Sequence record: ON286972
Source: Escherichia phage A4
DNA: 64,000 nucleotides
Direction: 5' to 3' (one strand)
Shown: one piece after another, positions 11,267 through 64,000 of the stretch
Numbering within the stretch: the stretch's first letter is position 1
Layout of the letters: every line of letters begins with the position of its first letter
Program-made: the position numbers and the translations under genes
The notes under the pieces: generated by a model
The model's input: only the letters and a program-made list of their open reading frames with translations
The model's database searches: none
Told to the model about the DNA's origin: nothing

Positions 11267-11267
11267 A

Positions 11268-11677: not shown

Positions 11678-12177
11678 ATGCTCATTACGCATGTACCGGA
11701 AAGTATTACTGAAATTTTAAATAAAATTAATGTTAATGAGTTTGAACGAACAGTTCGAAAACAGGGTACTTATCACTATAAGCACAAAGATGGTGATCAT
11801 CAAATAAGCTTAGATCAGAATTATCAAACTCTAACAATTAAAATGGTTACTCGTTGGAATTTTGTTCGTAAAGACACTATTATCTGTGATTTTGGTAAAA
11901 GTCTACTTAGAAAATGTTTCTCTGAAACAAATGGTATCTATCCAAACCCGAATAGAATTTTTACATATCGATACATCACAGATGAAGATGCACATTTCCA
12001 AGAGAGCTTGGTATGCGATAATAAGTACTTTCCCGCATTTTCTGATAATTTGAAATTAAAAGAACTATATGACTATTTCTTGAATGACAATATCCTGTGG
12101 GATGAAGAATTAAAAAAACGACAGATAGAACGTGAAAAGAAAAAAGTATGGACTGGCTCACATTGGATGCAACGTAA

Positions 12178-12181
<4 letters not shown>
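11678..12181 (+). CDS. hypothetical protein (DEDAHFQES variant motif)
   Basis: ATG ORF with CAGGAG SD. Confidence 0.55.
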
Positions 12182-12671
<490 letters not shown>

Positions 12672-15045: not shown

Positions 15046-15231
<186 letters not shown>

Positions 15232-15295
15232 TCATTGAATGGGGTGTATTATGGTTCAAGAAGAAAACTGGGGTTTTTAACCTAACGAGGTCAAT

Positions 15296-15438
<143 letters not shown>

Positions 15439-15439
15439 A

Positions 15440-15570
<131 letters not shown>

Positions 15571-15571
15571 T

Positions 15572-16006
<435 letters not shown>

Positions 16007-16014
<8 letters not shown>

Positions 16015-16378
16015 TCTAATAGTACGTATAATGCAAGATGTTCGAAAGAACCTTTATACAGGCAATTTTGACGATTCGAACATTAAACTATTATGTTATG
16101 ATGGTTTTACCTTGGTACATCCATCTGAATCAAATAATATATACATATCATATACTTCCAAAAATCAATTATATCAATTATATCAATTTGATATATATAG
16201 CACAATGGCTAAAATAACTTTGGACGTATCCAAGCAGCCTATCCTTATCGCTGTACCAGAATGCAATTACACTGAAGAATCACTGTTTCAGTACTCAATG
16301 ATAAATGACATTGGCGACTTGACATTAGAAGAGATTAACGCTATACTAGATGTATCACGTTTGATTAATGCCTACTAA
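16007..16378 (+). CDS. hypothetical protein, EE-x-Y-F-Q family (TEESLFQYS)
   Basis: ATG ORF overlapping upstream stop; C-terminal tail similar to 15577 gene. Confidence 0.5.
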
Positions 16379-48503: not shown

Positions 48504-48856
48504 TGCAAGAGGTTATTAAATGGTTGACAACCAGTGATATTGCTAGTACACTGAACTATGTACTCATTATCTTATATCCGTTTTTGATGGTTCTAAACTT
48601 CATTGGATGGTATTTCAAACGTCCAATTTACTACAAGATTAATAATTCAGAGTACTATGAAAGTGTTGTAATTGCAACCTCAATCACGTATACTATGGGT
48701 GCGGTTCTTACAGTCATAGGATTAGGTCAAGGTGATAATCTTAACTTTATGCTATGTACCTTTGTTATGATATGTATTCCAACACTAATTGTAATTCTAT
48801 CGAATATTGTGTGGAAAAAAATGTTATTTGCACGCAACAAAATACCGGAGGCATAA
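48503..48856 (+). CDS. small multi-pass membrane protein, tandem array member 2
   Basis: track ORF 48398..48856 trimmed to ATG overlapping upstream stop (TAATG). Confidence 0.5.
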   Translation: MQEVIKWLTTSDIASTLNYVLIILYPFLMVLNFIGWYFKRPIYYKINNSEYYESVVIATSITYTMGAVLTVIGLGQGDNLNFMLCTFVMICIPTLIVILSNIVWKKMLFARNKIPEA

Positions 48857-49191
48857 TGGAGTACTTTATCAGTTTACTACCGTGGTACTTGAAAGTAAGT
48901 ACAATTTACTACATCATTTCCGCTGGGTTTTATTTCTTGATGTGGTTCTTTAAACGTCCAATCAGTGAATTCATCGATAATCATATGATGAGTTTTAAAC
49001 TTCACTGCTGGTTTTGGTCATCGTCAGTGATGCCATTCATCCATTACGGAATTATCAGTACTGGTAAACGTTCTAATGGTGAAATCATTTCCTTGGGTTT
49101 TTACTGGATATCGACTATTGTTTACATTGGTGTGCTTTTGTATCCATTTGTAGTTAAACTACGAAACTCTATCCCAGATCACAGGAAATAA
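48856..49191 (+). CDS. small multi-pass membrane protein, tandem array member 3
   Basis: track ORF 48754..49191 trimmed to ATG overlapping upstream stop; FKRPI motif shared with member 2. Confidence 0.5.
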   Translation: MEYFISLLPWYLKVSTIYYIISAGFYFLMWFFKRPISEFIDNHMMSFKLHCWFWSSSVMPFIHYGIISTGKRSNGEIISLGFYWISTIVYIGVLLYPFVVKLRNSIPDHRK

Positions 49192-49192
49192 T

Positions 49193-49513
49193 ATGAAGAT
49201 TCAATTTATTCTTTTCACAGTAAGTGCATTCTACTTTTGGGTTTGCTGGATTGGTTTTCTCTTTGCACTAAAACCATTTGACTTCTATGCAAAGCAGTGT
49301 AAAAATGCTGCTGTTGGTAATGTAGCTTTTACATTGCTTAGTACATTATGGGTAGTACTGATTATATTCAATCCACCTGATAATGATTTGGAAATGTCAT
49401 TGTGTACATTATTTGCAGGACTGTGTGTATTCGCAGCATTCTGTAGTTATATTGGAAAGTTATGTTCTTTGGTATCAAATTTCCATCGTAAACAAAAAGA
49501 TAAGAGGGTATAA
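49193..49513 (+). CDS. small multi-pass membrane protein, tandem array member 4
   Basis: ATG ORF, hydrophobic. Confidence 0.5.
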   Translation: MKIQFILFTVSAFYFWVCWIGFLFALKPFDFYAKQCKNAAVGNVAFTLLSTLWVVLIIFNPPDNDLEMSLCTLFAGLCVFAAFCSYIGKLCSLVSNFHRKQKDKRV

Positions 49514-49896
49514 TGTACACAACAATATATGTTATTCTTAATATCCTAAGTGCATGTCTAACAATAGGTGCATTAATATACATTGGAAAGTTCTTTTGTG
49601 TAAAGTTCGTCGAAGATGTGTATGAGGATATTGAATCCGACTACGAATCTAAGTGCTTCTTCCATGTTGGATATATCATTTGCTTAGTAACCACTATCTT
49701 CACATGGATTGTATACGTATTCGGGATTGGAATCACTTCAATTGGTGAACCAGTACTGTGCATTATTGGATTAGTGTTTTCTTCAATATTCGGGTTATTG
49801 TTCATGATTATTCTTATGTATAATTTAATCTGTACTGCTATTGTTCCTTTCTTTTATGAAATTCACAATAACATTAAACGTAAGAAACGAGGTTAA
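49513..49896 (+). CDS. small multi-pass membrane protein, tandem array member 5
   Basis: TAATG overlap, hydrophobic. Confidence 0.5.
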   Translation: MYTTIYVILNILSACLTIGALIYIGKFFCVKFVEDVYEDIESDYESKCFFHVGYIICLVTTIFTWIVYVFGIGITSIGEPVLCIIGLVFSSIFGLLFMIILMYNLICTAIVPFFYEIHNNIKRKKRG

Positions 49897-49898
49897 TT

Positions 49899-50252
49899 AT
49901 GTTTTCTCCTGCTGGACAAGTTATATTCATGGTATGTACACTGGTATTCTTTATGTTGTCTGTACTATTTGTGATGAAATTCTTTCACATGAAACCATTC
50001 AGTACTTGGTATGATAATATTGTGTACTATATTGGTAATGCTATAACACTCTTTTCAGTTGCATACTATTTCGGTTATTTTGCAATGCTATTTGGGTTAT
50101 TACTTGAAGCTCGTGCATTGCTTGTAGCTGGTATGGTGGCAGATTTAATGTGTCTAACACTAGCTTGTATTGGATTTACTGTATGTATGTCGTTAACCAT
50201 TTTTGACAAATTATGTAAACTACACAAACGTTTAGGTGAGAGGATGAAATAA
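49899..50252 (+). CDS. small multi-pass membrane protein, tandem array member 6
   Basis: ATG ORF, hydrophobic. Confidence 0.5.
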   Translation: MFSPAGQVIFMVCTLVFFMLSVLFVMKFFHMKPFSTWYDNIVYYIGNAITLFSVAYYFGYFAMLFGLLLEARALLVAGMVADLMCLTLACIGFTVCMSLTIFDKLCKLHKRLGERMK

Positions 50253-50635
50253 TGACTTACCGTGATTACTTTTGTATTTTTGAAATTGCAGTATTCGCTT
50301 TAGGTTCAGTCTGGTTACTTCTATACTACTTCTGTATTAATCCAGTATTCAATTGGGTTCGTCGTGCTGAACAAAGTAGTGCTGGACAAATAGCAGTTGT
50401 TATGGGTATGACATATTATATGTTCGCCGTGGCTTCTGTTGTTATTGAAGTAATATTTGGTGGCATGAATGGTGATGATGGGGCAACGTTCTATGGATTC
50501 GTAACATTCTTTAGTGTGCTGATTCCGTGTGGTGCTCTTATTATTACTGCGTTCTATTGGCTATATCGTGGTGTTAAGAAGCTGGAATCAATTCACGTAG
50601 ATATGCGTTCAAAACGAATGGGGATTGACAAATAA
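50252..50635 (+). CDS. small multi-pass membrane protein, tandem array member 7
   Basis: TAATG overlap, hydrophobic. Confidence 0.5.
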   Translation: MTYRDYFCIFEIAVFALGSVWLLLYYFCINPVFNWVRRAEQSSAGQIAVVMGMTYYMFAVASVVIEVIFGGMNGDDGATFYGFVTFFSVLIPCGALIITAFYWLYRGVKKLESIHVDMRSKRMGIDK

Positions 50636-51186
50636 TGAAACGAAGTTCTAATGTCATTCGCGAACGATTTCGTAAAGTAAAAACTATTAAGTACGGGACT
50701 ATTGCTCTTGTACTTAGTAGTACTTTTATTATGACAGGATGTGAACGCTCTGAAGATATTTCTGTATATCAGAATGTGGACCAATGTAAAAGAAGTGGTA
50801 GCAATCCGGTACAGTGTGAAGATGATTATAAAAAAGCACTAACTGAATCGGAAAAGGTAGCACCAAAATATAGTTCACAAAGTGATTGCTCTAGTGATTT
50901 TGGTAATCAGTGTCAACAGCATAGCTCTGGATTCTTTTGGATGCCAATTATGAGTGGATTCCATAGTAGTGGTAATGGGTTTGCTAGTCAACCACTATAC
51001 AACTCTAAAGGGAACTACTATGATGCTGGTGGTAACTCCTACGGTAGCAGTACTGCAAAAGGTACAACACGTACTGTATCAAGTTCCGCATTAGCTCCAA
51101 AACCTCCTACAACGACCACAATCACCCGCAATGGGTTTGGGTCTTCAGTAGCCAGAAGTGCCGCTCACACGAGTTCTGGTGGATAA
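50635..51186 (+). CDS. putative lipoprotein with Gly/Ser/Thr-rich C-terminus
   Basis: signal peptide ...ALVLSSTFIMTGC with lipobox-like MTGC; ATGA overlap. Confidence 0.55.
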   Translation: MKRSSNVIRERFRKVKTIKYGTIALVLSSTFIMTGCERSEDISVYQNVDQCKRSGSNPVQCEDDYKKALTESEKVAPKYSSQSDCSSDFGNQCQQHSSGFFWMPIMSGFHSSGNGFASQPLYNSKGNYYDAGGNSYGSSTAKGTTRTVSSSALAPKPPTTTTITRNGFGSSVARSAAHTSSGG

Positions 51187-51189
51187 TAA

Positions 51190-51216
51190 AAAAGCCCACA
51201 TTAAGTGGGCTTTTTG
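51190..51216. terminator. bidirectional rho-independent terminator between convergent gene blocks
   Basis: hairpin AGCCCAC-ATTA-GTGGGCT flanked by AAAAA and TTTTT. Confidence 0.65.
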
Positions 51217-53241
51217 TTATTTGTGTTTTATGTGTAAAGTGTCTAATATTGTATTGAACAATGATTTAGCAGAAATCATGATTACTTGATCAAAATCTTT
51301 AGTATAAGAAATATTAGCAGTACTGGAAGAATCTTTCACCTCATCCGGTAATGCATCAAACTCTTCTTTTTCCATAATCTTTTCAAGTTCTTCACGAGAA
51401 ATGGCTTTTACGTTTTCAATAGTCCTTAGTTGTATATTATAATCTTTATAATACGAAACTAAGTTCGTTGCGTATGAACCATCTTTAGATGCTGTTCCAG
51501 TAAAATCATAACATCCTGTATCAGTACTAACCCAATCGATTTTCCCTGAACTACCACTATATACACCTTTGTTGAACTTAATGTTAACAACATCACCAAT
51601 AGTTTTCAATATACCACCTTTACATTCATTAAATGCGTTTAATTGATAACTTGTAGTCATATAGAATTTCGGTTCTAATGTAACAGTATCACCTACAGTT
51701 GCTTTCATATCAGAAACACTTAAGAACAATTCATTAAATCCTTTTGAATAAGTCTTGGTAATTGTTGTTCCATCCCTGTTAGTTACTGTGTATTCTAAGT
51801 CCAATTCACAAATACTATTCAATGATAAGTAAGGGATATCAAATTTATCAGTACTAGCATCATAAGGACATCTTGAGGATGGTAGTATACCAGTAGGGTT
51901 TGGTACGTATTGAACTTTTGTTAACTCATACCCGCTTGCATTCGCTGGTGTAACTGTAATAGACGGTGTAGATATTCCTTTCATTCCACAGAAGTATATG
52001 TTATCTGGAAAATCATTTATTACGAAGTCAGTGACAGGAATATCATAAGTATCTTTATCAGTCCAATTAAGAACAACATTAGAACTGGTTGGATCAACAA
52101 TATGTTCACTAGAACCACAGAAATATACTGATTTGGTATTAGTAATCATTAGTAATGTTTTGGATGATGAGTTCAATTCAAGAACATCTTTCACTTCAAG
52201 ACCAGATGGTAATGTCAATGGTAACTTCGTAAATGATGTTAAATCTTGTTCATCTTTAACACCACTAGTCCCCGCCGGAAACTTACCTGAACCATAGAAA
52301 ACACCTTTATTCGTCATGAAATACATGAACGGGGTTGATGTTCCTTTGTCAAATAGTTGAATGTCATCACATGTTAAACCATCAGGTAAATCCACTTTAG
52401 ATGGAGTTCTATAAACACCAGGCTTAATACCACCTTCACCATTACTTACATCACCTAGTACATATAAATCTTTACCTAGTTTCAAGAACATTGATTTATT
52501 TTTAGCACACAAGAATGTATCATATGATTTATCATCAATTGGTAGCTTGGTATATTCGGTGTATGTAGGCATTGAATCATCAATCCACGAACTATCACCA
52601 CTAATGTAAATGTGATTGTTTCTGTCAATATAATATGAATACACATCAGTACTGTTCATATATAAAGCATTTAGTGCATTTGTTTTCACTAAGTGATTGA
52701 ACTTAAGAACTTGTTTTCCATCGTACTTATGGGAGTTGACACCAATATCACCATTTAGGCTACTACCAATTGAATATATATGACCACGTGGTAATAGAAC
52801 TTGAACACCACTTTTGGTTAAATTATATTTGGAGTGCAAGAGATCGTTATATACAACTCTAACTTTCTTAAAGATATCAGTACATTCAATCCACGATTTA
52901 GATGGTGTACCATCCATTCCTATTATTGCCGGATCACCATAATAATAAGCTTTATTTTCATATGATATTTTAAAAGATGATTTACCATCTTTTGTATTAG
53001 CACTGAAGTACACATCTTTACTATCTTTAATTGGATAAGTACTATTCTCTACAAAAGTATTATATGAGATATCGTTGTTAGCACTATTAAGAACAAAAGA
53101 AGTAGATGTACTATTGGACTTATAGACTGCTACGGAAGATGTATCACTGAAATCAATTTTAGTGAACGTATCTTTGTATGTTTCGTTTAATAATCCTACA
53201 TAAAAAACATCAGTGCCATCCATCAGTAACGAATATAGCAT
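51217..53241 (-). CDS. large beta-propeller-like protein with RCC1-type motifs (array member 10, no MLPFVRM leader)
   Basis: 674-aa ORF; motifs such as KDLYVLGDVSNGEGG; start may be the in-frame ATG at 53223. Confidence 0.6.
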   Translation of the reverse strand: MLYSLLMDGTDVFYVGLLNETYKDTFTKIDFSDTSSVAVYKSNSTSTSFVLNSANNDISYNTFVENSTYPIKDSKDVYFSANTKDGKSSFKISYENKAYYYGDPAIIGMDGTPSKSWIECTDIFKKVRVVYNDLLHSKYNLTKSGVQVLLPRGHIYSIGSSLNGDIGVNSHKYDGKQVLKFNHLVKTNALNALYMNSTDVYSYYIDRNNHIYISGDSSWIDDSMPTYTEYTKLPIDDKSYDTFLCAKNKSMFLKLGKDLYVLGDVSNGEGGIKPGVYRTPSKVDLPDGLTCDDIQLFDKGTSTPFMYFMTNKGVFYGSGKFPAGTSGVKDEQDLTSFTKLPLTLPSGLEVKDVLELNSSSKTLLMITNTKSVYFCGSSEHIVDPTSSNVVLNWTDKDTYDIPVTDFVINDFPDNIYFCGMKGISTPSITVTPANASGYELTKVQYVPNPTGILPSSRCPYDASTDKFDIPYLSLNSICELDLEYTVTNRDGTTITKTYSKGFNELFLSVSDMKATVGDTVTLEPKFYMTTSYQLNAFNECKGGILKTIGDVVNIKFNKGVYSGSSGKIDWVSTDTGCYDFTGTASKDGSYATNLVSYYKDYNIQLRTIENVKAISREELEKIMEKEEFDALPDEVKDSSSTANISYTKDFDQVIMISAKSLFNTILDTLHIKHK

Positions 53242-54154
53242 TTCTATTATTACATAAAGAAGTAATATTTTTTACTACTTTATTTGAATTATAGTTTGGT
53301 AACTTCTTTAATCCACGAACAAAATTATCACAAATAATACCAGTACCATAGAAGTTATAATCTTTATCACAGTATATAAATGCTGTATCATATGGTGAAG
53401 TACTTAAATTCTTATAGAATGGGAATGGAGTGAATGTGAATTGTAGAACCTTACGCAATTCCCCTACTGTCTCTGTTGGGAATTGTCTGTTTTTATTATT
53501 ACCAATAAAAACAACTCTATCTGTTAGGAATGTGTACATAATTCCATATGGTTTTACGTACAAATCATTATATCCCAATGATAATTTAGTTGGTGATGTT
53601 AGTGGTCCTGAGTTTATTTTGGTTTGATTAATTGAAAACTCATTAGAATTATAACCAGCCCCATATGTATTACCATTAGTACTTAAATAATATACAGTAG
53701 CTTCCCCTGCTCCAAGAAAAGTCTTTACATCAGTTGCTAACGTTTTTTGGAAAGTTGGATAAAATTTATTATATGTTCCCGTTCCCATCATCAGTTCACC
53801 ATTGCGGTTATGACCACGAGCATATAGAATACCTTTGTCTGTATCTAAGAAGAACATACCATTATATGTTTTGTAAATCTTACCTTTTGTAATATCGAAA
53901 TTGGAAAAATCATCACTAATATCAATGAATATTGTCTCAAGATTATCTTCAAGGGAGTTTAGAGATTTACCACAATACCATACTGAGTTATCTTTTTTAA
54001 CAGCAACACAACCACACGGACTGGCATCAAAATATGTTACATCGGAAAGAACCAGAGATAAGTTCTTTGTACTGCAATAGTTATCCATTGCATATAAATC
54101 GGAATCTTTAAGTATATATACGGAATTCCCAACCGCTTTAATCGAATTTATCAT
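53210..54154 (-). CDS. RCC1-like beta-propeller protein (array member 9, no MLPFVRM leader)
   Basis: track ORF starts TTG at 54244; trimmed to ATG (MINSIK) after GAGGA SD; motif GILYARGHNRNGELMMG. Confidence 0.55.
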   Translation of the reverse strand: MINSIKAVGNSVYILKDSDLYAMDNYCSTKNLSLVLSDVTYFDASPCGCVAVKKDNSVWYCGKSLNSLEDNLETIFIDISDDFSNFDITKGKIYKTYNGMFFLDTDKGILYARGHNRNGELMMGTGTYNKFYPTFQKTLATDVKTFLGAGEATVYYLSTNGNTYGAGYNSNEFSINQTKINSGPLTSPTKLSLGYNDLYVKPYGIMYTFLTDRVVFIGNNKNRQFPTETVGELRKVLQFTFTPFPFYKNLSTSPYDTAFIYCDKDYNFYGTGIICDNFVRGLKKLPNYNSNKVVKNITSLCNNRNAIFVTDGWH

Positions 54155-54373
54155 GTTTATATCCTCATAAATTGATACCAATTCTAATGTATTTACCCAC
54201 TTAAAGTACAAAAAATGATCAATTAAATGGGGAATCTTTAACAAATGAATTCATGATGTACTTGATGAATTGCCCATACCAACGGATTCCTCAGTCCCAG
54301 CATACCACATGGTATTATCGAACTTTTTATCATTGTAGTATCATAACCACACCAAACATCATCAACATTAGTA

Positions 54374-55726
54374 TTACAACAATTGTATTTCTGTGAGTGT
54401 TTGATATGTTGTACCGTTGTACACACCTCTCCAATATACCCTACCTTCAGTACTAACCACTAATAATCCATATGTTGTAAACCCAAGAGTACCACCAACA
54501 TACATAGCATCTTTAATTCGAATACCAATGTCTTCATATGTAAATGAAGCGACTGCTCCCGCTTGCCACGAAGGACTAGCGTAGTAATCACTATAAACAC
54601 CATGTGCTTTATATATTGATGTTGTTCCTGGTTCAAAAATTACAGTTCCACAGTAGTTCATTCGTATTTTAGTACTGGATGAAGTCGGTACATTTATACC
54701 TATGCCATCTTTTATCCCTGTAGTTAGGACGTTAAAACCACCCGCCACACGGTTGACGTCATTCTCACCGATTAAAAACATACCAACGTTGTAGCCCATA
54801 TAATATACACTGCTACTGCCATTCCAGAAAGAAAAACCACCACCATTACCACAGCGATATAGTTGTGAATTTGAGCAGTACATCATACCTTCGTTTGTCG
54901 CATCAAATTCATCTGCTGTTCCTATTGTAGCTACAGTAGTCCACGTTTTAATCACTTGGTTTGTACTAGCTGGTGTTTGTATACCATATCGTATATTATA
55001 TCCCTTACCAACGATTGTACCATCTTCTAATTTAGCATAAAGTACAGGTCTATTACCAACAAAATACATATTATTGTGTGACATGTCTATTGTGCATCTT
55101 AATGAAACTACTTTTTGTGTCAATTGATTATCTTTAGTAAAAGAAGTAAAGTAGTAATCCGATGTTGAGTTGTTTATTAAACCTTGTATTGACAATCCCA
55201 TATACCAGATTTCACCATTGCTGTTTAATGCTGCCAAAATACAACTATATTTTGAAGTGTATGCTGGTGATGTTGTTGAAGTTGCTGGTCCTTTATCATA
55301 TCCACCACAGAATACCATCTCCACAACTTCACCTACGTTCGAAAAATAAGAAGATACATTGATAAAACCATTTGTTATAAAAGGTGCTGTATTCATACTT
55401 GAATGTGTGAATATCCCATTTGCATATACACCACAAAAATGATATGAACCATCATTATCTTGGACTATTATTCCATTTGATAGTAACCAAAAATTGTTTA
55501 CATTTTTTCTTACTAATTCAACTCCTGCACCATTGGTTGGTGTTATACCAAAAGAAACATATTTTGTTTGACCAATACCATATAAATTTCCATTAGTTGC
55601 TAGTATTGCACCAAACCAGTTCCCACCACCATTCCTATCATGACCCATACCAATGGAGTCAAATTTCTTCACAGTAGGGACTTCAACTTTATTCCCATAC
55701 TCTAGCATTCTAACAAAAGGTAACAT
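54374..55726 (-). CDS. RCC1-like beta-propeller protein with MLPFVRMLEYGN leader (array member 8)
   Basis: SD AGGAGG then ATG MLPFVRMLEYGNKVEVP; motif GNLYGIGQTKYVSFG. Confidence 0.7.
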   Translation of the reverse strand: MLPFVRMLEYGNKVEVPTVKKFDSIGMGHDRNGGGNWFGAILATNGNLYGIGQTKYVSFGITPTNGAGVELVRKNVNNFWLLSNGIIVQDNDGSYHFCGVYANGIFTHSSMNTAPFITNGFINVSSYFSNVGEVVEMVFCGGYDKGPATSTTSPAYTSKYSCILAALNSNGEIWYMGLSIQGLINNSTSDYYFTSFTKDNQLTQKVVSLRCTIDMSHNNMYFVGNRPVLYAKLEDGTIVGKGYNIRYGIQTPASTNQVIKTWTTVATIGTADEFDATNEGMMYCSNSQLYRCGNGGGFSFWNGSSSVYYMGYNVGMFLIGENDVNRVAGGFNVLTTGIKDGIGINVPTSSSTKIRMNYCGTVIFEPGTTSIYKAHGVYSDYYASPSWQAGAVASFTYEDIGIRIKDAMYVGGTLGFTTYGLLVVSTEGRVYWRGVYNGTTYQTLTEIQLL

Positions 55727-55801
55727 ATATCCTCCTTTATTCATTATATTATATTTAATCAAAAAAGAAAAGCCAGTACAGAGTACTGGCATTTAAAATA
55801 A
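55727..55801 (-). repeat. conserved intergenic cassette (terminator hairpin GCCAGTAC...GTACTGGC + T-run, AT-rich TATAAT-containing promoter-like segment, AGGAGG SD)
   Basis: minus-strand reading TTTAAATGCCAGTACTCTGTACTGGCTTTTCTTTTTTGATTAAATATAATATAATGAATAAAGGAGGATAT-ATG; recurs 6 times. Confidence 0.65.
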
Positions 55802-56977
55802 TCAAAATGTAGGAAGTTTGAATTCTCTCATAACAGATGAACTGCTTGCAGATACATTATCTGGTGATTTCCCTGCGTAGTATAATTTATTATCAATGAA
55901 CATATACAATGTTGCATCATTTCCTGCTACAAGTGATTCACTTTTCTTAAATTTAACACCACTAGGTAAAATTGCTTCAACAAATGAACCTGATTCTCTT
56001 GTAGTATTATTTGCCAATTGACCATTGTTATTATAACCAGTACTATAAATTTTACCTGAACTATAATATACGAGTCCACGAGTACTAGTGTTTTCTATTC
56101 GAATGAATTCACTATCATCTGGGACTGTAGTTGATAGAACTGGGTTTAACTTATAAGCAGATGATACATTATTATTACCCAATTGACCATAACCTTGAAA
56201 GCCTAGTGTATACATAGGACATGATTCTGGTGTGCCTTTTGTTATAATACCAATATAATTCACACTACAAAAAATGTCTATTGCTTCTGTAATAGGTGTA
56301 CCCTTATATTGAACCCAAGGGAATACATACGATTGTTGCTTACCATTTCCCAAAGTACCGGAAGTTGTTGTCCCAGTACGCCACATTGTATCATCAAGTT
56401 TAATAATCCAGTTAGCTGTCGTTATCGATGAACAGAATTTTTTAACATTATCCACTAAAAATGTAAATTGATTATAATATGATGCAGTGTTTATACCAAA
56501 CTTAGCACCAGTATTATCACCTAACAAATATAAACTATTATCTGTACCTAAAATCAAAGCATAATCATAACCCACGTATATATCTTTAATTCTTGAAATT
56601 CCAAATTGTGTAAAATAGCTTGTACATTCTGTGAATGTTGTTATATTATTGGTTGTATTATTACCTAGCCATTTATCTAAACCACTATAAAAGAATCTAT
56701 CATCATTTGTGCGTATTAGACAAAAAGCGTTCATTGTACTGCACCAAAAATCTTTAACATTGCTATATATTTTTGTCCATTCAGTTACTGCATTAGTATG
56801 ACCTAAACCAAAAATTCCACCATTCTGAAGACCAATAGCCCATATTGAACCATTTTTATCAAGCATCATTGTACATGTATGTGAATAACCACCCGATGGT
56901 GTAACTAATTTAACAAAATTGGGAATATATGGTAAAACTTTATTTCCATAATCCAACATTCTAACAAAAGGTAACAT
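55802..56977 (-). CDS. RCC1-like beta-propeller protein with MLPFVRMLDYGN leader (array member 7)
   Basis: SD AGGAGG + ATG; motifs GSIWAIGLQNGGIFGLG, GKIYSTGYNNNGQLANNT. Confidence 0.7.
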   Translation of the reverse strand: MLPFVRMLDYGNKVLPYIPNFVKLVTPSGGYSHTCTMMLDKNGSIWAIGLQNGGIFGLGHTNAVTEWTKIYSNVKDFWCSTMNAFCLIRTNDDRFFYSGLDKWLGNNTTNNITTFTECTSYFTQFGISRIKDIYVGYDYALILGTDNSLYLLGDNTGAKFGINTASYYNQFTFLVDNVKKFCSSITTANWIIKLDDTMWRTGTTTSGTLGNGKQQSYVFPWVQYKGTPITEAIDIFCSVNYIGIITKGTPESCPMYTLGFQGYGQLGNNNVSSAYKLNPVLSTTVPDDSEFIRIENTSTRGLVYYSSGKIYSTGYNNNGQLANNTTRESGSFVEAILPSGVKFKKSESLVAGNDATLYMFIDNKLYYAGKSPDNVSASSSSVMREFKLPTF

Positions 56978-57048
56978 AATTCCTCCTTTATTCATTATAC
57001 TATATTTAATCAAAAAAGAAATGCCAGCATCAAGTACTGGCATTATTG
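56978..57048 (-). repeat. conserved intergenic terminator/promoter/SD cassette
   Basis: hairpin ATGCCAG...CTGGCAT + T-run + ATATAGTATAATGAATAAAGGAGG. Confidence 0.6.
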
Positions 57049-58239
57049 TTATAGTTGTCTTGGTGTATCAAGTACATATCTATTTGTACTAGGACCACCA
57101 TCATCATACGTTCCGGTTGAATATATATTTTTCATATCAGCAGTTAGAAAAGTACGATACGAACCGCGATATATTTTTATTTTATCATACATAGAATATG
57201 ATATTTCTGCTGGCATTGGACATATAGTAAATCTACCAATAGTAACATTAGAACCAACACCCAACGAACCAGCATAACTACTCGCATTTAAACCAGTTGC
57301 ATATACACCAGTACTCGTAACTAGTATACTAGATTGTGTTGGGTATCCTGTATGAATTGAATACAAAGTTCCAGTTGGTAATGTCGTACTATTGCTCCCT
57401 AATACAGCAAGTGCCGAACTGGTTGTGGTATTGTTACCCCATGCACCATTACTCGCTAAACCACCAACTAGAAACTGACGTGCACCAGTACTTGGATTCT
57501 CAACCAAAGCACTGACTGCACCACTTGAGCATCCAGTGTATTGTAACGTTTTTGTGTATGTTGTACTTGGTTTATATAAAGTATATTCATTAAATGGTGT
57601 CCATGTGGTACTGGTACTTATACCTGACGTACCACCACCAATATATAAATTATTTTGTGTATCAAAAAACATTACACAGTTATTTGTTGACTGTATTTGT
57701 GCAATATCAACATTAGGCGTGACAGCTTTTACAAATGATCCATCTGTTATTTGTTGAGTACTACCAGTACCATCAGCGAATTGTCTAGCCCCACTCCAAC
57801 CAGTACTCCATATTGTATTATTATCCATTAATACCGTAAACCACGTAGTACCTCCATACATCTGTTTAATTGAAGTACTTGAACTTTGCGTGTACAAATT
57901 TTCAATATATTGGTTATAACTTAAAAACGTAGTAGTACTAGTTGGTAAACCAATATGATCACCATATCCACAATAAAAATAATTTGAGTCATTATCTTGT
58001 ACTAACAAAGTTCCTTGTGACACCCAGAAATCTTTAACATTTTCTCTAATTAAGGTCCATGACTTTACTGCATTACTATTTCCTATACCAAACTTCCCAA
58101 AACTATTATTTCCACGTGCGTATAGTTGACCATCCGTATAAAGAACGACAACATCTAAATCAGTTGGTGTTATTTTCTTAATTTGAATAGGGACTGGTGT
58201 TATATTCCCATAATCAAACATTCTAACAAAAGGTAACAT
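57049..58239 (-). CDS. RCC1-like beta-propeller protein with MLPFVRMFDYGN leader (array member 6)
   Basis: SD GGAGGG + ATG; motif GQLYARGNNSFGKFGIG. Confidence 0.7.
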   Translation of the reverse strand: MLPFVRMFDYGNITPVPIQIKKITPTDLDVVVLYTDGQLYARGNNSFGKFGIGNSNAVKSWTLIRENVKDFWVSQGTLLVQDNDSNYFYCGYGDHIGLPTSTTTFLSYNQYIENLYTQSSSTSIKQMYGGTTWFTVLMDNNTIWSTGWSGARQFADGTGSTQQITDGSFVKAVTPNVDIAQIQSTNNCVMFFDTQNNLYIGGGTSGISTSTTWTPFNEYTLYKPSTTYTKTLQYTGCSSGAVSALVENPSTGARQFLVGGLASNGAWGNNTTTSSALAVLGSNSTTLPTGTLYSIHTGYPTQSSILVTSTGVYATGLNASSYAGSLGVGSNVTIGRFTICPMPAEISYSMYDKIKIYRGSYRTFLTADMKNIYSTGTYDDGGPSTNRYVLDTPRQL

Positions 58240-58310
58240 ATTTCCCTCCTTTATTCATTATACTATATTTAATCAAAAAAGAAAAGCCAGTATCAAGTAC
58301 TGGCCTATAT
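58240..58310 (-). repeat. conserved intergenic terminator/promoter/SD cassette
   Basis: same cassette family (GCCAGTACTTGATACTGGC hairpin). Confidence 0.6.
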
Positions 58311-59480
58311 TTAAACTGGTGAATCTAATACAAATTCTAAACTACTAATGCCACCATATGTGACATTTGTCCCTGTGCTATATACAAAATTACCATCAGT
58401 TATATAAGTTCGGTTATACCCACCTGCCATCTGCGACTTACTATAATCAAACCCATCAGGAACGATTGCTTTGGTATATACTAATGCATTATTAGATGTA
58501 CCAATACCTAACATACCAGCTCCTGAAGATTTATTGTAGCCGCAACAATATATACCATCTGTTGTAGCAATAACTTGGTTATAATATGAAGTAATGTTAG
58601 CAATGCTTACTACATCACCGGGTGGCATTAGTGAAGCAGTTTGAACCTCAAATGCTCTATAATCACTGAGAGAACCATTTATCCCATCTGCTTGTGCACC
58701 AAATATTCTCGAACCGCCATTTGCGATGATGGTTTTACCAGTGGGATCAGTACCAATTGCCATTGCCATTGAAGTACTATTCTCCATATAGTACTTGATA
58801 TTAATTGTATTTCTTAAGCTGGTAGGAGCACCATAATATATAGTATATAACTTACCTCCTGAACTTGTAACTGCATTTACTCTTCCTGTATAAAATAGCC
58901 ATCCTTGGTTTGTAACATAACCGTGCATTAAATTACTTGCAAACAATTTAACAGGTAATTGATCTGCTGCGGTCGGAACAGTACTTTTGACGAATTTTCT
59001 AGCAACATTGTTAGTTGTTGTCCCATCACCCAACTGACCATCACCCCCTGCTCCAGTACTCCATATTGTTTGGTCTGTTAGTAATACACTTGTAGTCTGA
59101 TAACTAACTGCTATATCTAATATTGGTAATGTTAACGTATCGAATGTTGGCATAGCAGAAGTCCATATTGATACTGCTGCCCCTGGCATACCAACAGTTG
59201 TTGAACTTCCACTGTACCATATTTCATCATTGCTTTTCTTAATAACTATCGACGTGGCTCCCATCCAAAAATCTTGAACATCAGAAGTGCTAAAAGTCCA
59301 TGTAGTAACAATATTTTTGTGACCTAAACCCAAAAGACCATTTGTATTCTCACCACGCACATATAAATCACCACTGTTTGTTAAAACAGCAACATTATAG
59401 TTGTTAGCTAGTATTTTTTTAATATTTGGTTTAGCAGGTGCAATATTCCCATACTCTAACATTCTTACAAAAGGTAACAT
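58311..59480 (-). CDS. RCC1-like beta-propeller protein with MLPFVRMLEYGN leader (array member 5)
   Basis: track ORF extends upstream into cassette; trimmed to SD-proximal ATG; motif GDLYVRGENTNGLLGLG. Confidence 0.7.
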   Translation of the reverse strand: MLPFVRMLEYGNIAPAKPNIKKILANNYNVAVLTNSGDLYVRGENTNGLLGLGHKNIVTTWTFSTSDVQDFWMGATSIVIKKSNDEIWYSGSSTTVGMPGAAVSIWTSAMPTFDTLTLPILDIAVSYQTTSVLLTDQTIWSTGAGGDGQLGDGTTTNNVARKFVKSTVPTAADQLPVKLFASNLMHGYVTNQGWLFYTGRVNAVTSSGGKLYTIYYGAPTSLRNTINIKYYMENSTSMAMAIGTDPTGKTIIANGGSRIFGAQADGINGSLSDYRAFEVQTASLMPPGDVVSIANITSYYNQVIATTDGIYCCGYNKSSGAGMLGIGTSNNALVYTKAIVPDGFDYSKSQMAGGYNRTYITDGNFVYSTGTNVTYGGISSLEFVLDSPV

Positions 59481-59550
59481 AATTCCTCCTTTATTCATTA
59501 TATTATATTTAATCCAAATAAGAAAGCCAGTATCAAGTACTGGCATTGTG
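59481..59550 (-). repeat. conserved intergenic terminator/promoter/SD cassette
   Basis: same cassette family. Confidence 0.6.
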
Positions 59551-60660
59551 TTATTTCGGTAAATCAATTTTAGTAAAGACTGCAACATCCTCGCTTGCAC
59601 CGGGAATGGCGTAATACGTTCCAGTACTATATACATCTCCATTTTTGGTTAATATTGAAGTCAAACCATCACTAAAAAGAACATCCCTAATCTCACTAAC
59701 TTCAACGGGTAATTGTAAATTTGTAGCACTATATATAGCACCAGTTTGAGAATTGTTTAATCCCAAACCACGGTTCGCCCCAACACCCTTCTGATATGTA
59801 CTGGTAATTACCATTTGTGTAGCAGTATTTAATGCAGGTGAATTCGTCATAAACAACGGAGAACTATTAGGCAAAGTACTTACAGGAACTGCACGGAATG
59901 TAGTCGTACCTGAACTAAGAAAGTTTGGAGTTTGACCACATACGAAATATGATGTACCATTATAGTAATTAAATGCATTACCACCAATCGCTGCATCGAT
60001 TACACCAGAACTACGTAATCCCCAAGTGTTAATTTGTGTTTGGTCCCCTGTACCATGCTGCCCACTGCTATTCCATCCAGAACTATATAGCTTATTATCT
60101 AATGTAATATACATACTATCATTTGCATTAGTCATTACTTTACGCACGTTAGTAGCACATTGAGTTAATGTGTAAATCGATGATGAGCCAATACCTAAAG
60201 AACCACGATATCCATTATCTCCTGCACCATAGAGTACTGAACTAGTGCTAAGTACAAATATTAAACCATTTGTACATACAATATTAGCAATTTCACTCAC
60301 TGGTATAGCATTGGTAAACCAATTAGTCCTTTCAACTAATATAGTACTGTAAGAAGTAGTTGTAGAAGATGAGAACCAGTACGTTTCACCCGATGTCCAT
60401 ATCGTATTATCATTTTTAATAATAACAAGTGTACGACCACCCACGAAAAAATTAGAAACATCTGAACTTACTAATATCCATGAAGATACCGTGTTGTTAT
60501 TACCATTTCCAGATTCACCACCTTGATTTCTACCTATGTAATATAAATCATGTGAATCAGTCAATAAGAATTGACCCTGTGTAGAAGCACCAACTTTAAT
60601 TATATTTTTAGGACCGGGTACAATATTCCCGTACACTAACATTCTTCCAAAAGGTAACAT
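59551..60660 (-). CDS. RCC1-like beta-propeller protein with MLPFGRMLVYGN leader (array member 4)
   Basis: SD AGGAGG + ATG; motifs HDLYYIGRNQGGESGNG, NKLYSSGWNSSGQHGTG. Confidence 0.7.
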   Translation of the reverse strand: MLPFGRMLVYGNIVPGPKNIIKVGASTQGQFLLTDSHDLYYIGRNQGGESGNGNNNTVSSWILVSSDVSNFFVGGRTLVIIKNDNTIWTSGETYWFSSSTTTSYSTILVERTNWFTNAIPVSEIANIVCTNGLIFVLSTSSVLYGAGDNGYRGSLGIGSSSIYTLTQCATNVRKVMTNANDSMYITLDNKLYSSGWNSSGQHGTGDQTQINTWGLRSSGVIDAAIGGNAFNYYNGTSYFVCGQTPNFLSSGTTTFRAVPVSTLPNSSPLFMTNSPALNTATQMVITSTYQKGVGANRGLGLNNSQTGAIYSATNLQLPVEVSEIRDVLFSDGLTSILTKNGDVYSTGTYYAIPGASEDVAVFTKIDLPK

Positions 60661-60733
60661 AATTCCTCCTTTATTCATTATACTATATTTAATACAAAAA
60701 AGAAAAGCCAGTACTCTGTACTGGCATATTACA
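60661..60733 (-). repeat. conserved intergenic terminator/promoter/SD cassette
   Basis: same cassette family (GCCAGTACAGAGTACTGGC hairpin). Confidence 0.6.
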
Positions 60734-61876
60734 TTATTTCCACGGTAGAAGTGAATCAGGAACTCTGGTTGGTACTCTAACGGCTGGAACATTTCCAAGT
60801 TCAGGTAAACCACTCATATACAAATTGTTATTTTCATCAATTATCATTGAATAGAAATTATCAATTACGAAGCCTGAAATTCGTCTTCCTTCTAATGCAT
60901 CAAGAACCATTTCGGTGAAAGTTAGTATATTTTCGGATGTTTGATTAACACCACATGCACCATAGGTATTTCGACCACAAGTATATAACTTATTATTATT
61001 TTTAACAACACATCCATTCCCTTCGTTGTTGGATAAACCACCCACCAACTCTATTTCACCTTGGAATGATAAATTGGGAATTAATGTACTCATTGGTACT
61101 GCTGATACTGTACCTACACCAGCTTGACCATATGCATTTGGTGAAGCAACCTTCACTGAACCATCATTAAGAAATATATATGAAGTACGGTATGTATTTA
61201 CAGCTTGTATAGCATTGGTGATAGTATTGTCTTTTGTAAAACTTAATATATTTGATGTTTTTGTACTACCAGGAGCAACAGTATTTCCTGCATACCAATA
61301 GGAGCCATCATCAAGTACTAACCCAGTACTGAGCAAAGAACAGCCATAACTTTTAACATTTTCTATAGTGCTGTATCTGAACGATGTGACATTAGCTGTT
61401 GACGCGTTACCAAATACACCACCTTCGCCAGAACCACAGTAGAACCATTTTCCATTTTTTAAAAATACACGCAAATTCTGCCCAACAGCAATACCATCAA
61501 TATCATCAGCACTGACACCAAAATCAGTGAAGTACTGGGTTACATCAATCCAAACCCCATTTGTATTTGTTCCGATTTGTGGCATTACTATACTAGCACC
61601 TGTGAACCAAATAGTTCCATCATTCTTAATGGCAATGGAACCAAGAACACCACCCCAGTAACGTTCAATATTATTATTCACACGGGTCCATACGGTGGAT
61701 GATTGTAATGAACCATTACCACCTTGTCCAAATGAAGATGAACCATACCAGTACAAGTCACCATTAACATGCAAATAAAAACGAGTATTATAATTTGCTT
61801 GTAATCTATTTTTAAATAGAGGTTTTGGTTCCGGTGCAATATTCCCGTACTCTAACATTCTAACAAAAGGTAACAT
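60734..61876 (-). CDS. RCC1-like beta-propeller protein with MLPFVRMLEYGN leader (array member 3; near-duplicate of member 2)
   Basis: 380 aa; N-terminus MLPFVRMLEYGNIAPEPKP and C-terminus ...VPTRVPDSLLPWK shared with 61949..63091. Confidence 0.75.
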   Translation of the reverse strand: MLPFVRMLEYGNIAPEPKPLFKNRLQANYNTRFYLHVNGDLYWYGSSSFGQGGNGSLQSSTVWTRVNNNIERYWGGVLGSIAIKNDGTIWFTGASIVMPQIGTNTNGVWIDVTQYFTDFGVSADDIDGIAVGQNLRVFLKNGKWFYCGSGEGGVFGNASTANVTSFRYSTIENVKSYGCSLLSTGLVLDDGSYWYAGNTVAPGSTKTSNILSFTKDNTITNAIQAVNTYRTSYIFLNDGSVKVASPNAYGQAGVGTVSAVPMSTLIPNLSFQGEIELVGGLSNNEGNGCVVKNNNKLYTCGRNTYGACGVNQTSENILTFTEMVLDALEGRRISGFVIDNFYSMIIDENNNLYMSGLPELGNVPAVRVPTRVPDSLLPWK

Positions 61877-61948
61877 AATTTCCTCCTTTATTCATTATAC
61901 TATATTTAATACAAATAAGAAATGCCAGTACTCTGTACTGGCATTATA
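61877..61948 (-). repeat. conserved intergenic terminator/promoter/SD cassette
   Basis: same cassette family. Confidence 0.6.
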
Positions 61949-63091
61949 TTATTTCCACGGTAGAAGTGAATCAGGAACCCTTGTCGGTACATTTGTAGTA
62001 GACACCCCATCAAGATTTGGTACACCGCATGTATATAAATTATCAGCATCGTCAACTAACATCGTATAGTTATATCCCCTACAAAAACTACTAACATTAC
62101 GACCTTCTAATGCAGTAAGAATCATTTCAGTGAATGTTGTTATATTTGTCGAGGTTGAACCAACACCACATTGTCCATTTGAATTAAGACCACATAAAAA
62201 TAACTTATTATCATTTTTAATTATACAGGATGGTCCAGTAAGGTTTGTACCAAGCTCACCCACTAACTCTATTTCACCTTGGAATGCTAAATTTGGAATT
62301 AATGTACTCATAGGGGCTGGTGTTGTATTCCCAGTACCTGCTTGACCACGTTCGTTGGAAGATGCAACTTTAACTGTTCCATCACTAAGAAATATATAGG
62401 AAGTTTCAATTGTATTGACTGCTTTAATTGCAGTGCTGATAGAAGTTTCTTGTGTAAATCTTAGCACGTTTTGTGCTGACGTTCCCGATATAAACGTATT
62501 ACCTGCATACCAATATGTACCATCATTGAGTACTAATGCAGTACTTCGAATTGCACAACCAGCACTTCGAACATTTTCTATAGTACTGTACGTGAATTGT
62601 GAAACGCTTGCCGATGAACCATTTCCGAATACACCACCACTCCCAGCACCACAGAAGAACCACTTTCCATTTTTCAAAAATACACGCATACACGCAGATA
62701 TAACAATACTATCAATATCATCAGCACTGACACCGAAATCAGCAAAGTGCGATGTCACATCAACCCAAACACCGTTAGTGTTTGATGCAATTACTGGAAT
62801 AACAGAACTTGTACCAGTGTACCAAATAGTACCATCTTTCTTTATCGCTATTGTTCCTTGAACACCACCCCAATATCGTACAACATTTGTATTGACGAGA
62901 GTCCATGCGGTTGAAGAGTTCAATGAACCATTACCACCTTGACCATATGATGAAGAACCAAACCAATATAGATTACCATTGGTGTGTAAATAAAATTTGG
63001 CATCTGCCGAGCATTGTAACCTATTTTTTAATCGTGGTGCGGGTTCCGGTGCAATATTCCCGTACTCTAACATTCTAACAAAAGGTAACAT
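61949..63091 (-). CDS. RCC1-like beta-propeller protein with MLPFVRMLEYGN leader (array member 2)
   Basis: 380 aa; motifs GNLYWFGSSSYGQGGNG, NKLFLCGLNSNGQCGVG; only 12 bp (GGAGG SD) after upstream gene. Confidence 0.75.
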   Translation of the reverse strand: MLPFVRMLEYGNIAPEPAPRLKNRLQCSADAKFYLHTNGNLYWFGSSSYGQGGNGSLNSSTAWTLVNTNVVRYWGGVQGTIAIKKDGTIWYTGTSSVIPVIASNTNGVWVDVTSHFADFGVSADDIDSIVISACMRVFLKNGKWFFCGAGSGGVFGNGSSASVSQFTYSTIENVRSAGCAIRSTALVLNDGTYWYAGNTFISGTSAQNVLRFTQETSISTAIKAVNTIETSYIFLSDGTVKVASSNERGQAGTGNTTPAPMSTLIPNLAFQGEIELVGELGTNLTGPSCIIKNDNKLFLCGLNSNGQCGVGSTSTNITTFTEMILTALEGRNVSSFCRGYNYTMLVDDADNLYTCGVPNLDGVSTTNVPTRVPDSLLPWK

Positions 63092-63103
63092 AATTCCTCC
63101 ATA

Positions 63104-64000
63104 TTATTTAAAAACATACTGCGTATTAACACGAGTGCCATTGTCAAAACCAAGTACATAAAATATCTCAGCACTATTCTTAGAACCAAATAACGCACCA
63201 GTACTACTACTCAAAGTAGTATTAACCGCTAAGGGAATCCATATGTCTTCTTCTGCATCGTATCTCAATAAATTTAATGCACCATACGACACTGCATATA
63301 TATTTTTATCATATGTACTGTAACATATTTTACTAGGGTTATTACCACCAACTGGTGCTATGTTAGACCACACCGCACTTTGTATATGATATTTTTGTGC
63401 AGTACTAGTACCTTGACCAGTAATATATATGTAAGTACCATCCGTACACATATCACCACCTCCATTGTTATTTGTTCCATCACTTGTACCTAATGATGAC
63501 CATGTATTAGTACTTGGAGTATAACTGTATAACGAATTATTAGTAGGCGAACCCCACAAATATATCTTATCCCCAGCAGTAATCATCTTACTATACGCCA
63601 GTTGACTAGGCTTCCCAATACTGTTAGTGTTCAGAATCCATGTATTTGTACTTATATTATATACATAAAAATTATTACTACTATTACCTGAACCACCAAA
63701 CAAATATATTTTTCCCTGATAAGCACATAACGCACTACCAAATGTAGATACAGGTGCATTGGCTAATTGTGACCACGTTCTTGTAGTTAAATTAAAACTC
63801 CATAACTGATTATCCGTCTGCACCGCATTCTGTATACCACCAAATATATAAGCAATATTACTTTCCGCATCATACGTATAACCAAAGTTATTTCGTGCTG
63901 AAGGTACTGGTGATGTAGTAAATTGTGTTCGTACTCCACCATTTGGGCCAGGTAATGGACCTACATTCCCGAACTCAAACATTCTTACAAAAGGTAACAT
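63104..64000 (-). CDS. Kelch-like beta-propeller protein with MLPFVRMFEFGN leader (array member 1)
   Basis: start codon is the last 3 nt of the window; repeated ...TNTW/TRTW... blade motifs (STNTWILNT, STNTWSSLG, TRTWSQLA). Confidence 0.7.
   Translation of the reverse strand: MLPFVRMFEFGNVGPLPGPNGGVRTQFTTSPVPSARNNFGYTYDAESNIAYIFGGIQNAVQTDNQLWSFNLTTRTWSQLANAPVSTFGSALCAYQGKIYLFGGSGNSSNNFYVYNISTNTWILNTNSIGKPSQLAYSKMITAGDKIYLWGSPTNNSLYSYTPSTNTWSSLGTSDGTNNNGGGDMCTDGTYIYITGQGTSTAQKYHIQSAVWSNIAPVGGNNPSKICYSTYDKNIYAVSYGALNLLRYDAEEDIWIPLAVNTTLSSSTGALFGSKNSAEIFYVLGFDNGTRVNTQYVFK

Follow-up and report, generated by a model that had tools for sequence, protein, structure and literature searches.

A shared N-terminal tag and a repeated intergenic cassette in the propeller-gene array of an Escherichia jumbo phage

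Described arrays and the array of phage A4

Arrays of propeller genes annotated as RCC1-like or 'DNA condensation' genes are found in the phages 121Q, PBECO4, phAPEC6, G17 and Turkey5 and in about 35 other records, and the label used for them in GenBank is 'putative DNA condensation (RCC1-like)'. We analyzed the same array in Escherichia phage A4 (record ON286972), where it occupies the minus strand at 51217..64000 (about 13 kb) of a stretch of 64,000 nucleotides (nt), hereafter called the window. A sequence-only reading of this DNA had described ten beta-propeller genes of a presumed T4-like phage and knew of no comparable array. We found instead that arrays of this kind have annotated counterparts in related phages and that the source, judged by its sequence, is a 350-kb Asteriusvirus-like Escherichia coli phage of the group of 121Q, PBECO4, phAPEC6 and G17, that is, a Rak2-like jumbo phage, in which the T4-type core genes are distant. 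The same reading overlooked what are the most informative features of the array: a peptide shared by the N-termini of the eight intact genes (g3 to g10), which we call the tag, and an intergenic unit repeated ahead of six of them, which we call the cassette. Together with swaps of whole genes between related phages, these features appear to be undescribed, and we found no mention of them in the literature searched. We propose, with a probability of roughly 0.45, that the binding domains are interchangeable modules which the tag attaches to the virion, probably to hair-like fibres at its surface.

The arrays of Asteriusvirus and other Rak2-like phages (121Q genes 234-248; phAPEC6 gp001-010 with gp549 and gp551; CBB_548-554) lie at the same locus as that of the window. 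Small membrane-protein genes and a DUF1190 gene adjoin them, as they do here, and CBB shares these flanking genes. These arrays contain the same protein families (phrog_4219 and phrog_12615), the tag and the cassette, and most orthologues are 65-99% identical to the window genes. The window array differs in having its own combination of gene types, a rare untagged gene of 977 amino acids (aa) that is frameshifted, and a deletion that removed a 307-aa gene. By the tag of g3-g10, by synteny, and by orthology to genes of 121Q, phAPEC6 and Turkey5, the window genes are members of the Rak2-like tagged family, whose arrays comprise phrog_4219, phrog_12615, phrog_6011 and phrog_4474. In DNA similarity searches the best coverage of the array by any deposited phage was 38%, at 86% identity; the neighbouring 21 kb were likewise mosaic (coverage up to 46%, identity about 90%), and the window had no match among complete E. 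coli genomes.

Members of the family have been found in virions. Eleven RCC1-like proteins were counted in phAPEC6, eight of which were detected in virions by mass spectrometry (MS), and the authors, pointing to the chromatin binding of eukaryotic RCC1, suggested that these proteins might organise the DNA of the inner body (PMC7247149). In the phAPEC6 record (MK817115; L001), full-length tagged genes at 10599-11333, 11405-12595 and 15115-16224 (244, 396 and 369 aa) are unannotated and a wrong-frame 100-aa coding sequence is annotated in their place, so that the published count of eleven and the database used for the MS search may have missed members. In CsCl-purified virions of CBB, seven of the nine tagged proteins were identified by MS with 9.5-51% coverage; CBB has six structural proteins without a counterpart in GAP32, four of which are encoded in a cluster of about 10 kb (CBB_534-553) that holds the tagged genes, and Rak2-like phages carry homologues of gp20, gp21 and gp23 (PMC5259590). 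The virion MS list of JP4 includes three family members, and virions of W70, an unrelated member of the Vequintavirinae, contain three phrog_4219 proteins at spectral counts similar to those of baseplate proteins. 121Q, phAPEC6 and CBB bear hair-like fibres of unassigned composition on both capsid and sheath, and an inner body of unassigned composition is present in 121Q and phAPEC6.

Tag, cassette and exchange of whole genes

An array of propeller genes is confirmed at this locus. The ten minus-strand open reading frames (ORFs) described earlier are all there, but the two lowest are parts of the frameshifted 977-aa gene, which gives a corrected count of nine genes, one of them disrupted. The eight intact genes encode seven RCC1-like proteins (g3-g9) and one Kelch protein (g10). 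The ORFs at 54374, 55802, 58311 and 59551 had been called too far upstream owing to spurious in-frame extensions; their true starts are the ATGs of MLPF..., which gives products of 450, 391, 389 and 369 aa. All nine non-Kelch ORFs match phrog_4219 (E 1e-14 to 1e-114), and those at 55802, 58311, 59551, 60734 and 61949 (g4, g6, g7, g8 and g9) pass Pfam RCC1/RCC1_2 gathering scores; g3 and the 977-aa gene are recognised as RCC1-like through phrog_4219 only. The RCC1-type motifs quoted in the sequence-only reading do occur, GKIYSTGYNNNGQLANNT within the ORF at 55802 and NKLYSSGWNSSGQHGTG within that at 59551, and the Pfam and phrog_4219 matches are far beyond chance. Its view of the first gene as Kelch-like was also correct: g10 scores 62.6 bits for Kelch_1 (cutoff 20.1), 71.5 for Kelch_6 (25.3) and 87.6 for the KLHDC2-type domain (50) in Pfam, with E-values between 1e-24 (KLHDC2-type) and 2e-17.

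The one array member that AlphaFold2 (AF2) modelled confidently was g9, as a seven-bladed RCC1-like propeller with a predicted local distance difference test score (pLDDT) of 87 and a predicted template-modelling score (pTM) of 0.85. Foldseek matched this model to UVR8 and other RCC1-like domains (RLDs) with template-modelling (TM) scores of 0.74-0.76 (E 1e-21), and TM scores across UVR8, HERC2, RPGR and RCC1 ranged from 0.65 to 0.76. On this model g9 is predicted to have the seven-bladed beta-propeller fold of the RCC1-like domain superfamily, as had been expected for the array proteins. The paralogues are indeed strongly diverged (24-40% identity; 65% between g8 and g9), though not just in their central and C-terminal parts, as was first thought: they differ over their full length except for the first 12-17 residues.

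All eight intact genes begin with the tag, MLPF(V/G)RM(L/F)(E/D/V)(Y/F)GN, followed by a proline-rich linker, and the 977-aa gene has no counterpart of it. The Kelch protein g10 has only residues 1-19 in common with its RCC1 paralogues. In the AF2 model of g9, the tag and the proline-rich stretch (residues 1-20, pLDDT about 50) form a low-confidence, disordered extension outside the propeller, in keeping with the general architecture of tagged proteins: tag, linker, globular domain. Using the first 23 residues as a tblastn query, we found 6-15 tag sites per Asteriusvirus genome, and further sites in CBB, Serratia phage BF, GAP32, and jumbo phages of Erwinia, Salmonella, Klebsiella and Xanthomonas. 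The MLPF-headed proteins of CBB and BF include Kelch and RCC1 propellers, Laminin_G_3 domains (ConA-like lectin; 2e-12), 220-aa phrog_6011 proteins and a glycine-rich protein; a tagged glycine-rich protein is also present in 121Q and G17. When IMG/VR was scanned for exact matches to the DNA of the tag, 121Q alone was returned, and a census of tag-bearing folds with a 40-aa profile returned four short fragments.

MLPF is invariant in the 81 genes compared. Across genera its codons vary synonymously (P3 is CCA, CCT, CCG or CCC), as do those of Y10 (TAT or TAC), and G11 and N12 are retained in a mixture of codons; the retention of MLPF despite synonymous changes therefore argues for selection on the peptide. 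All 65 Asteriusvirus genes compared have exactly the same nucleotides in codons 1-4 and 6. CBB and BF lack the box that precedes the Asteriusvirus genes (see below) and have the tag peptide. Position 9 is K in 31, D in 15, E in 11 and N in 6 of the 65 Asteriusvirus genes, with other residues in two, and no conserved Glu was seen in the CBB and BF tags examined.

Several roles for the tag were considered and rejected. It is not a 'velcro' strand that closes the propeller, as closure is made by residues 25-28, the tag has a pLDDT of about 50, and non-propeller folds are tagged too. On inspection it lacks the long hydrophobic core of a signal peptide. Nor is it a capsid-targeting leader of the T4 type with cleavage at Glu, a residue that is not conserved; we retain that leader as a functional analogy.

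Each of g3-g8 is preceded by a cassette of 70-75 nt that consists of a hairpin (8-bp stem, GCCAGTAC-loop-GTACTGGC), a T-run, a box, a spacer of 4-5 nt and the ATG. The exact 26-nt box, AAATATA(G/A)TATAATGAATAAAGGAGG, occurs six times in the window, with zero copies expected by chance. From g8 down to g3 the cassettes (all on the minus strand) lie at 61877..61948 (hairpin with T-run 61942-61924, box AAATATAGTATAATGAATAAAGGAGG 61907-61882, then ATG), 60661..60733 (hairpin 60725-60707, box 60690-60665), 59481..59550 (hairpin 59544-59526, box 59510-59485), 58240..58310 (hairpin 58306-58284, box 58270-58245), 56978..57048 (hairpin 57044-57020, box 57007-56982) and 55727..55801 (hairpin 55790-55772, box 55756-55731). 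The window has no other copy of the hairpin, and those found in related phages all lie inside arrays.

The sequence-only reading had treated the genes after the first two as individual units, which agrees with the finding that six of them have their own cassette of terminator, promoter-like box and ribosome-binding site (RBS). The gap of 12 nt that it reported between the first two genes is there as well; because this gap contains only an RBS, g10 and g9 are probably co-transcribed, and the same pairing of a Kelch gene with a type-A gene is kept in Turkey5 and L008 (introduced below). A late sigma factor is annotated in phAPEC6, whose structural genes are preceded by TATAAATA, CATAAATA ((T/C)ATAAATA) or TTAAATA. 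The cassette holds ATTAAATA about 30 nt ahead of the ATG, plus TATAAT, and such TAAATA-type motifs, taken with the sigma factor, make late, gene-by-gene transcription of the array plausible. A sigma-70 scan was uninformative in this AT-rich DNA (69 sites against 74 expected).

We compared the array with related loci, among them L008 (GCA_012813795.2, contig AATHYQ020000001.1, 357,761 bp), a complete-looking jumbo phage in an assembly labelled E. coli and thus a lytic phage genome hidden within a bacterial assembly. Genes g10-g7 are collinear with L008 at 97% identity and g5-g4 resume at 92.6%; between them g6 is swapped for a gene of a different type, with breakpoints at window positions 59436 (about 45 nt into the gene) and 58308 (in the next hairpin), and between g4 and g3 L008 has two inserted genes of 269 and 130 aa. 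The breakpoints of the swap fall in the cassette and the tag. Variation in copy number and sequence among related genomes, which the earlier reading had proposed to look for, takes the form of whole-gene swaps and insertions, and clustering of the tagged genes from seven loci gave 41 types. About 25 of these occur in the six Asteriusvirus-like loci among the seven; each of these genomes holds 8-13 types, and their order is partly shuffled.

Between different types in one genome the tags have an identity of 0.86, and between orthologues across genomes 0.81, whereas the figures for the protein bodies are 26% and 86%, respectively; as the pairs are non-independent, p-values for this comparison are merely indicative. 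A tag thus resembles the other tags of its genome more closely than those of its orthologues, a pattern that implies either gene conversion via the cassette or co-evolution with a single partner. Turkey5 has two tag variants side by side, and tag positions 5-9 are therefore probably not critical.

The arrangement resembles that of the promoter/stem-loop (PeSL) cassettes, which, according to work reportedly published by Arbiol and colleagues in 2010, mediate modular shuffling in T4-type genomes. As in PeSL regions, a repeated unit of stem-loop and promoter flanks the genes of a hyperplastic region and recombination occurs at the cassettes: the window has six of them, their hairpin is array-specific, and the L008 breakpoints coincide with cassette and tag. 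The array cassette differs in being specific to one gene family, in running into the coding region as the tag, and in its apparently late-type TAAATA core in place of an early promoter.

Possible functions of the tagged proteins

We infer that interchangeable binding domains are incorporated into the virion through one shared signal, the tag, and that their shuffling is driven by the cassette, which is the best-supported reading of these data. The tag would place all array proteins at one kind of virion site, most likely an external one, namely the hair-like fibres of capsid and sheath in 121Q, phAPEC6 and CBB, and the variable domains on these hairs would bind host-surface structures as adhesins. 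Each gene would probably be its own late transcription unit, starting with the TAAATA-core box and a strong RBS and ending at the array-specific hairpin. The approximately 110 nt of conserved cassette plus tag could serve as homology for the swap, insertion, deletion and homogenisation of whole genes, and exchange by this route would explain why repertoires differ even between near-identical phages. The sequence-only reading had likewise thought of virion decoration or host recognition; the virion MS data of phAPEC6 (eight members), CBB (seven) and JP4 fit this idea.

We favour a surface location because the proteins are neutral, poor in charge and rich in S/T/N/G/Q/Y (isoelectric point (pI) 5-8; charged residues 10-15%, K+R 5-8%, S/T/N/G/Q/Y 45-52%), because the same tag heads lectin-like and glycine-rich domains, and because most of the CBB structural proteins that GAP32 lacks are encoded in the cluster of tagged genes. 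A further reason is the product of gene 40 of Salmonella phage PVP-SE1 (phrog_11922, 'tail protein'), in which a phrog_4219 RCC1-like propeller (1.5e-40) is fused to an Ig-like domain and which is encoded beside tail-fibre genes. This protein is structurally similar to g9 (TMq 0.69), and g6 and g7 weakly match phrog_11922. It differs from the array proteins in its size and layout (604 aa, with an N-terminal propeller, a Big_2 Ig-like domain and a C-terminal part) and in lacking the MLPF tag. A comparable principle operates in phages with multiple receptor-binding proteins (Klebsiella KP34/K64-1-type, G7C and CBA120), where an N-terminal docking element fixes different bodies to a common adaptor; those bodies are trimeric tailspikes or fibres attached to the baseplate, whereas the array bodies are apparently monomeric propellers or lectins.

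A bolder version of the proposal is doubtful, though worth stating: the 12 residues MLPFxRMxxYGN would be a universal plug-in docking tag by which any globular domain can be mounted at a common receptor site of the virion, with the cassette (terminator, promoter, RBS and tag) as the recombination handle for exchanging such display modules as whole genes, and this would explain the unassigned hairs of 121Q-like and CBB-like phages. The array may then be a natural, evolvable phage-display system.

Several points weigh against the proposal that the tag mounts binding domains on the virion surface. We infer, rather than take from experiment, both the surface location and the need of the tag for incorporation. 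A 40-kDa propeller cannot be a 119-nm hair and would therefore be a tip or ornament at most. These phages also have an inner body of unassigned composition, and the presence of T4-type head-assembly genes makes an internal location plausible. MS counts were low (1-5 peptides in phAPEC6, one peptide in JP4), and the JP4 virion list includes non-structural proteins. The codon invariance in Asteriusvirus could in part reflect gene conversion or a constraint on translation initiation rather than peptide function. Finally, the promoter class of the cassette is deduced from short AT-rich motifs alone.

The strongest competitor, to which we give about one chance in four in our own estimate, is that the proteins are cargo inside the head, possibly in the inner body, delivered to the host together with the DNA (anti-defence binders, for instance), and that the tag acts like the T4 capsid-targeting sequence by loading them into the scaffolding core. 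In the T-even internal proteins (IPI, IPII, IPIII and their polymorphic relatives), a short conserved N-terminal leader is likewise joined to unrelated, hypervariable bodies (PMC3012670). The likeness is one of analogy, as the array tag does not resemble the T4 leader in sequence and lacks a conserved Glu: the (L/I)-x-E site is not kept at position 9, which is E, D, K, N or V, with K commonest in Asteriusvirus. The shared 5' region of the T-even genes is said, in work of Repoila and colleagues from 1994, to mediate gene replacement. The virion association of family members, the homologues of gp20, gp21 and gp23 in Rak2-like phages, and the inner body of 121Q and phAPEC6 all suit cargo, and hypervariability among near-identical phages would fit an arms race with host defences. 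The bodies themselves do not: they are folded, neutral propellers or lectins of 30-50 kDa, whereas T4 internal proteins are small and basic, and the lectin-type and glycine-rich domains, like the RCC1-plus-Ig tail-module protein of PVP-SE1, point outward. Peptide counts of the phAPEC6 members were also below that of the 12-copy portal, which is ill-suited to a bulk component of the inner body.

We consider it rather unlikely that the common N-terminal peptide is functionless and owes its conservation solely to its place in a recombining or translation-initiating cassette, with the proteins entering virions, or acting in the cell, by other means. The nucleotide identity of codons 1-4 and 6 across the Asteriusvirus genes, the homogenisation of tags within genomes and the breakpoints at the tag are what such a cassette would leave behind; yet MLPF persists across genera through synonymous changes, Y10, G11 and N12 are retained although their codons differ, CBB and BF retain the peptide without the upstream box, and the tag, followed by a linker, stands on at least four unrelated folds. 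Less likely again is that the proteins condense or organise packaged DNA, as the names 'DNA condensation protein' and 'regulator of chromosome condensation' imply. The RCC1-like fold is real, family members are in virions, and an inner-body role was proposed for phAPEC6 by analogy with chromatin binding, but the name is borrowed from eukaryotic RCC1, an exchange factor for Ran. Eukaryotic RCC1-like domains (those of RCC1, UVR8, HERC2 and RPGR) have the seven-bladed fold and the RCC1 repeat signatures in common with the array proteins at only 13-20% identity, and the phage host has neither Ran nor chromatin; nothing points to an exchange-factor or DNA-related activity. The nearest structures, UVR8 and the RLDs of HERC and RPGR, are protein-binding modules, the near-neutral pI and low K+R content do not suggest DNA binding, Kelch, lectin and glycine-rich domains, which have no link to DNA, occur at this locus with the same tag, and a repertoire that varies from strain to strain would be unexpected for a core packaging function. 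We give as little weight to the idea that these are non-structural, host-manipulating proteins carried over into virion preparations. It would account for the low MS counts in phAPEC6 and JP4, whose lists also include enzymes (topoisomerase, PhoH and a ClpP-like protein), but not easily for independent detection in three phages, for seven members in CsCl-purified CBB virions at substantial coverage, or for the baseplate-like spectral counts of the W70 proteins.

These data suggest that 'DNA condensation' is a fold-based mislabel. The array genes carry this name, or 'regulator of chromosome condensation', in dozens of jumbo-phage genomes, several of them of therapy candidates, and some papers rely on it. 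If the tag does direct proteins into the virion, it would identify a decoration of the hairs or a cargo of the inner body, explain why near-identical phages differ mainly in array genes, and offer a 12-residue handle with which to display or package foreign proteins on a very large phage. If the tagged proteins are surface adhesins, variation of the array genes could matter for host range.

Individual genes and neighbouring DNA

The genes of the array are all encoded on the minus strand. The Kelch-repeat propeller g10 (63104..64000, 298 aa) has the tag MLPFVRMFEFGN and belongs to phrog_12615. It is followed by the RCC1-like propeller g9 (61949..63091, 380 aa; tag MLPFVRMLEYGN), in which both RCC1_2 and RCC1 exceed their Pfam cutoffs, and by g8 (60734..61876, 380 aa), a tagged RCC1-like propeller 65% identical to g9. 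The RCC1-like propellers g7 (59551..60660, 369 aa; tag MLPFGRMLVYGN) and g6 (58311..59480, 389 aa; tagged) match both Pfam and phrog_4219; g6 is an orthologue (65%) of phAPEC6 gp003, a protein detected in virions, and its position in L008 is taken by another gene. A further RCC1-like propeller, g5 (57049..58239, 396 aa; tag MLPFVRMFDYGN), matches phrog_4219 and narrowly misses the Pfam gathering score (18.9 against 22). g4 (55802..56977, 391 aa; tag MLPFVRMLDYGN), also an RCC1-like propeller, scores 40.7 bits for RCC1 and 28.3 bits for RCC1_2, and matches phrog_4219 with E 4e-114. The tagged 450-aa protein g3 (54374..55726) is a divergent RCC1-like member with a match to phrog_4219 (2.4e-16) over residues 1-444 and none in the Pfam profile search; it is conserved in L008, L009 (another related locus) and Turkey5. 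An ORF of 148 aa on the opposite strand (62415-62861, plus), antisense to g9, was treated as a chance ORF.

The untagged 977-aa gene (51217..54154, minus) is split into the ORFs 53210..54244 and 51217..53241. Its product is weakly RCC1-like in the first 700 residues (phrog_4219 at 1e-18 and 1e-14 for the two ORFs). The gene is intact in relatives, with the proteins P0021, P0022 and P0023 (977, 977 and 969 aa) being 99, 79 and 65% identical to the g1 query. The frameshift lies at 53216..53224 (minus), where a 4-nt tandem duplication gives GATGGATGG in the window against GATGG in a relative (CTGATGGATGGCAC against CTGATGGCAC in the longer comparison); either a true pseudogenising mutation or an error of sequencing or assembly could account for it. 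The 977-aa family is very rare, with three matches below 1e-30 among 1.84 billion representatives and no homologue in deposited phage records. AF2 modelled the protein from a 4-sequence alignment with a pLDDT of 47.5, too low to assign a fold to the C-terminal 280 residues. Upstream of it, 54252..54373 (minus) is a remnant of the 307-aa gene that is called in L008 and L009, from which about 811 nt are deleted in the window: window positions 54378-54252 align to L009 2894-3021, and the alignment then resumes at L009 3833.

Position 64000, the end of the window, is the A of the Kelch start codon, so that neither the cassette ahead of this gene nor array genes beyond it can be seen. One further RCC1 gene lies upstream of the Kelch gene in a 97%-identical relative and two in Turkey5, and for this reason the array probably continues beyond the window end. 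At its other end, a bidirectional terminator-like hairpin at 51189..51215 (no strand assigned) closes the array against converging plus-strand genes. GC skew changes sign at the array region, 51217-64000.

In 121Q (L006; 11046-14675) and G17 (L007; 5835-9838), about 20 tandem ORFs of about 60 aa on the opposite strand, at the far side of the array, form another paralogue array. In the window, five consecutive small plus-strand ORFs adjoin the array at 48754-50635 (145, 106, 127, 117 and 127 aa), and four of the five have 3-4 hydrophobic, transmembrane-like segments; the syntenic position in CBB holds a run of annotated 'membrane protein' genes. In related coliphage records, 'immunity to superinfection' and 'lytic conversion lipoprotein' genes are annotated in the neighbouring region. 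Next to the array, 50635-51186 (plus) encodes a 183-aa protein with a lipoprotein-like N-terminus (…FIMTGC…), which by its near-identical copy in L009 is a DUF1190 (PF06693) protein and which also stands beside the array in CBB.

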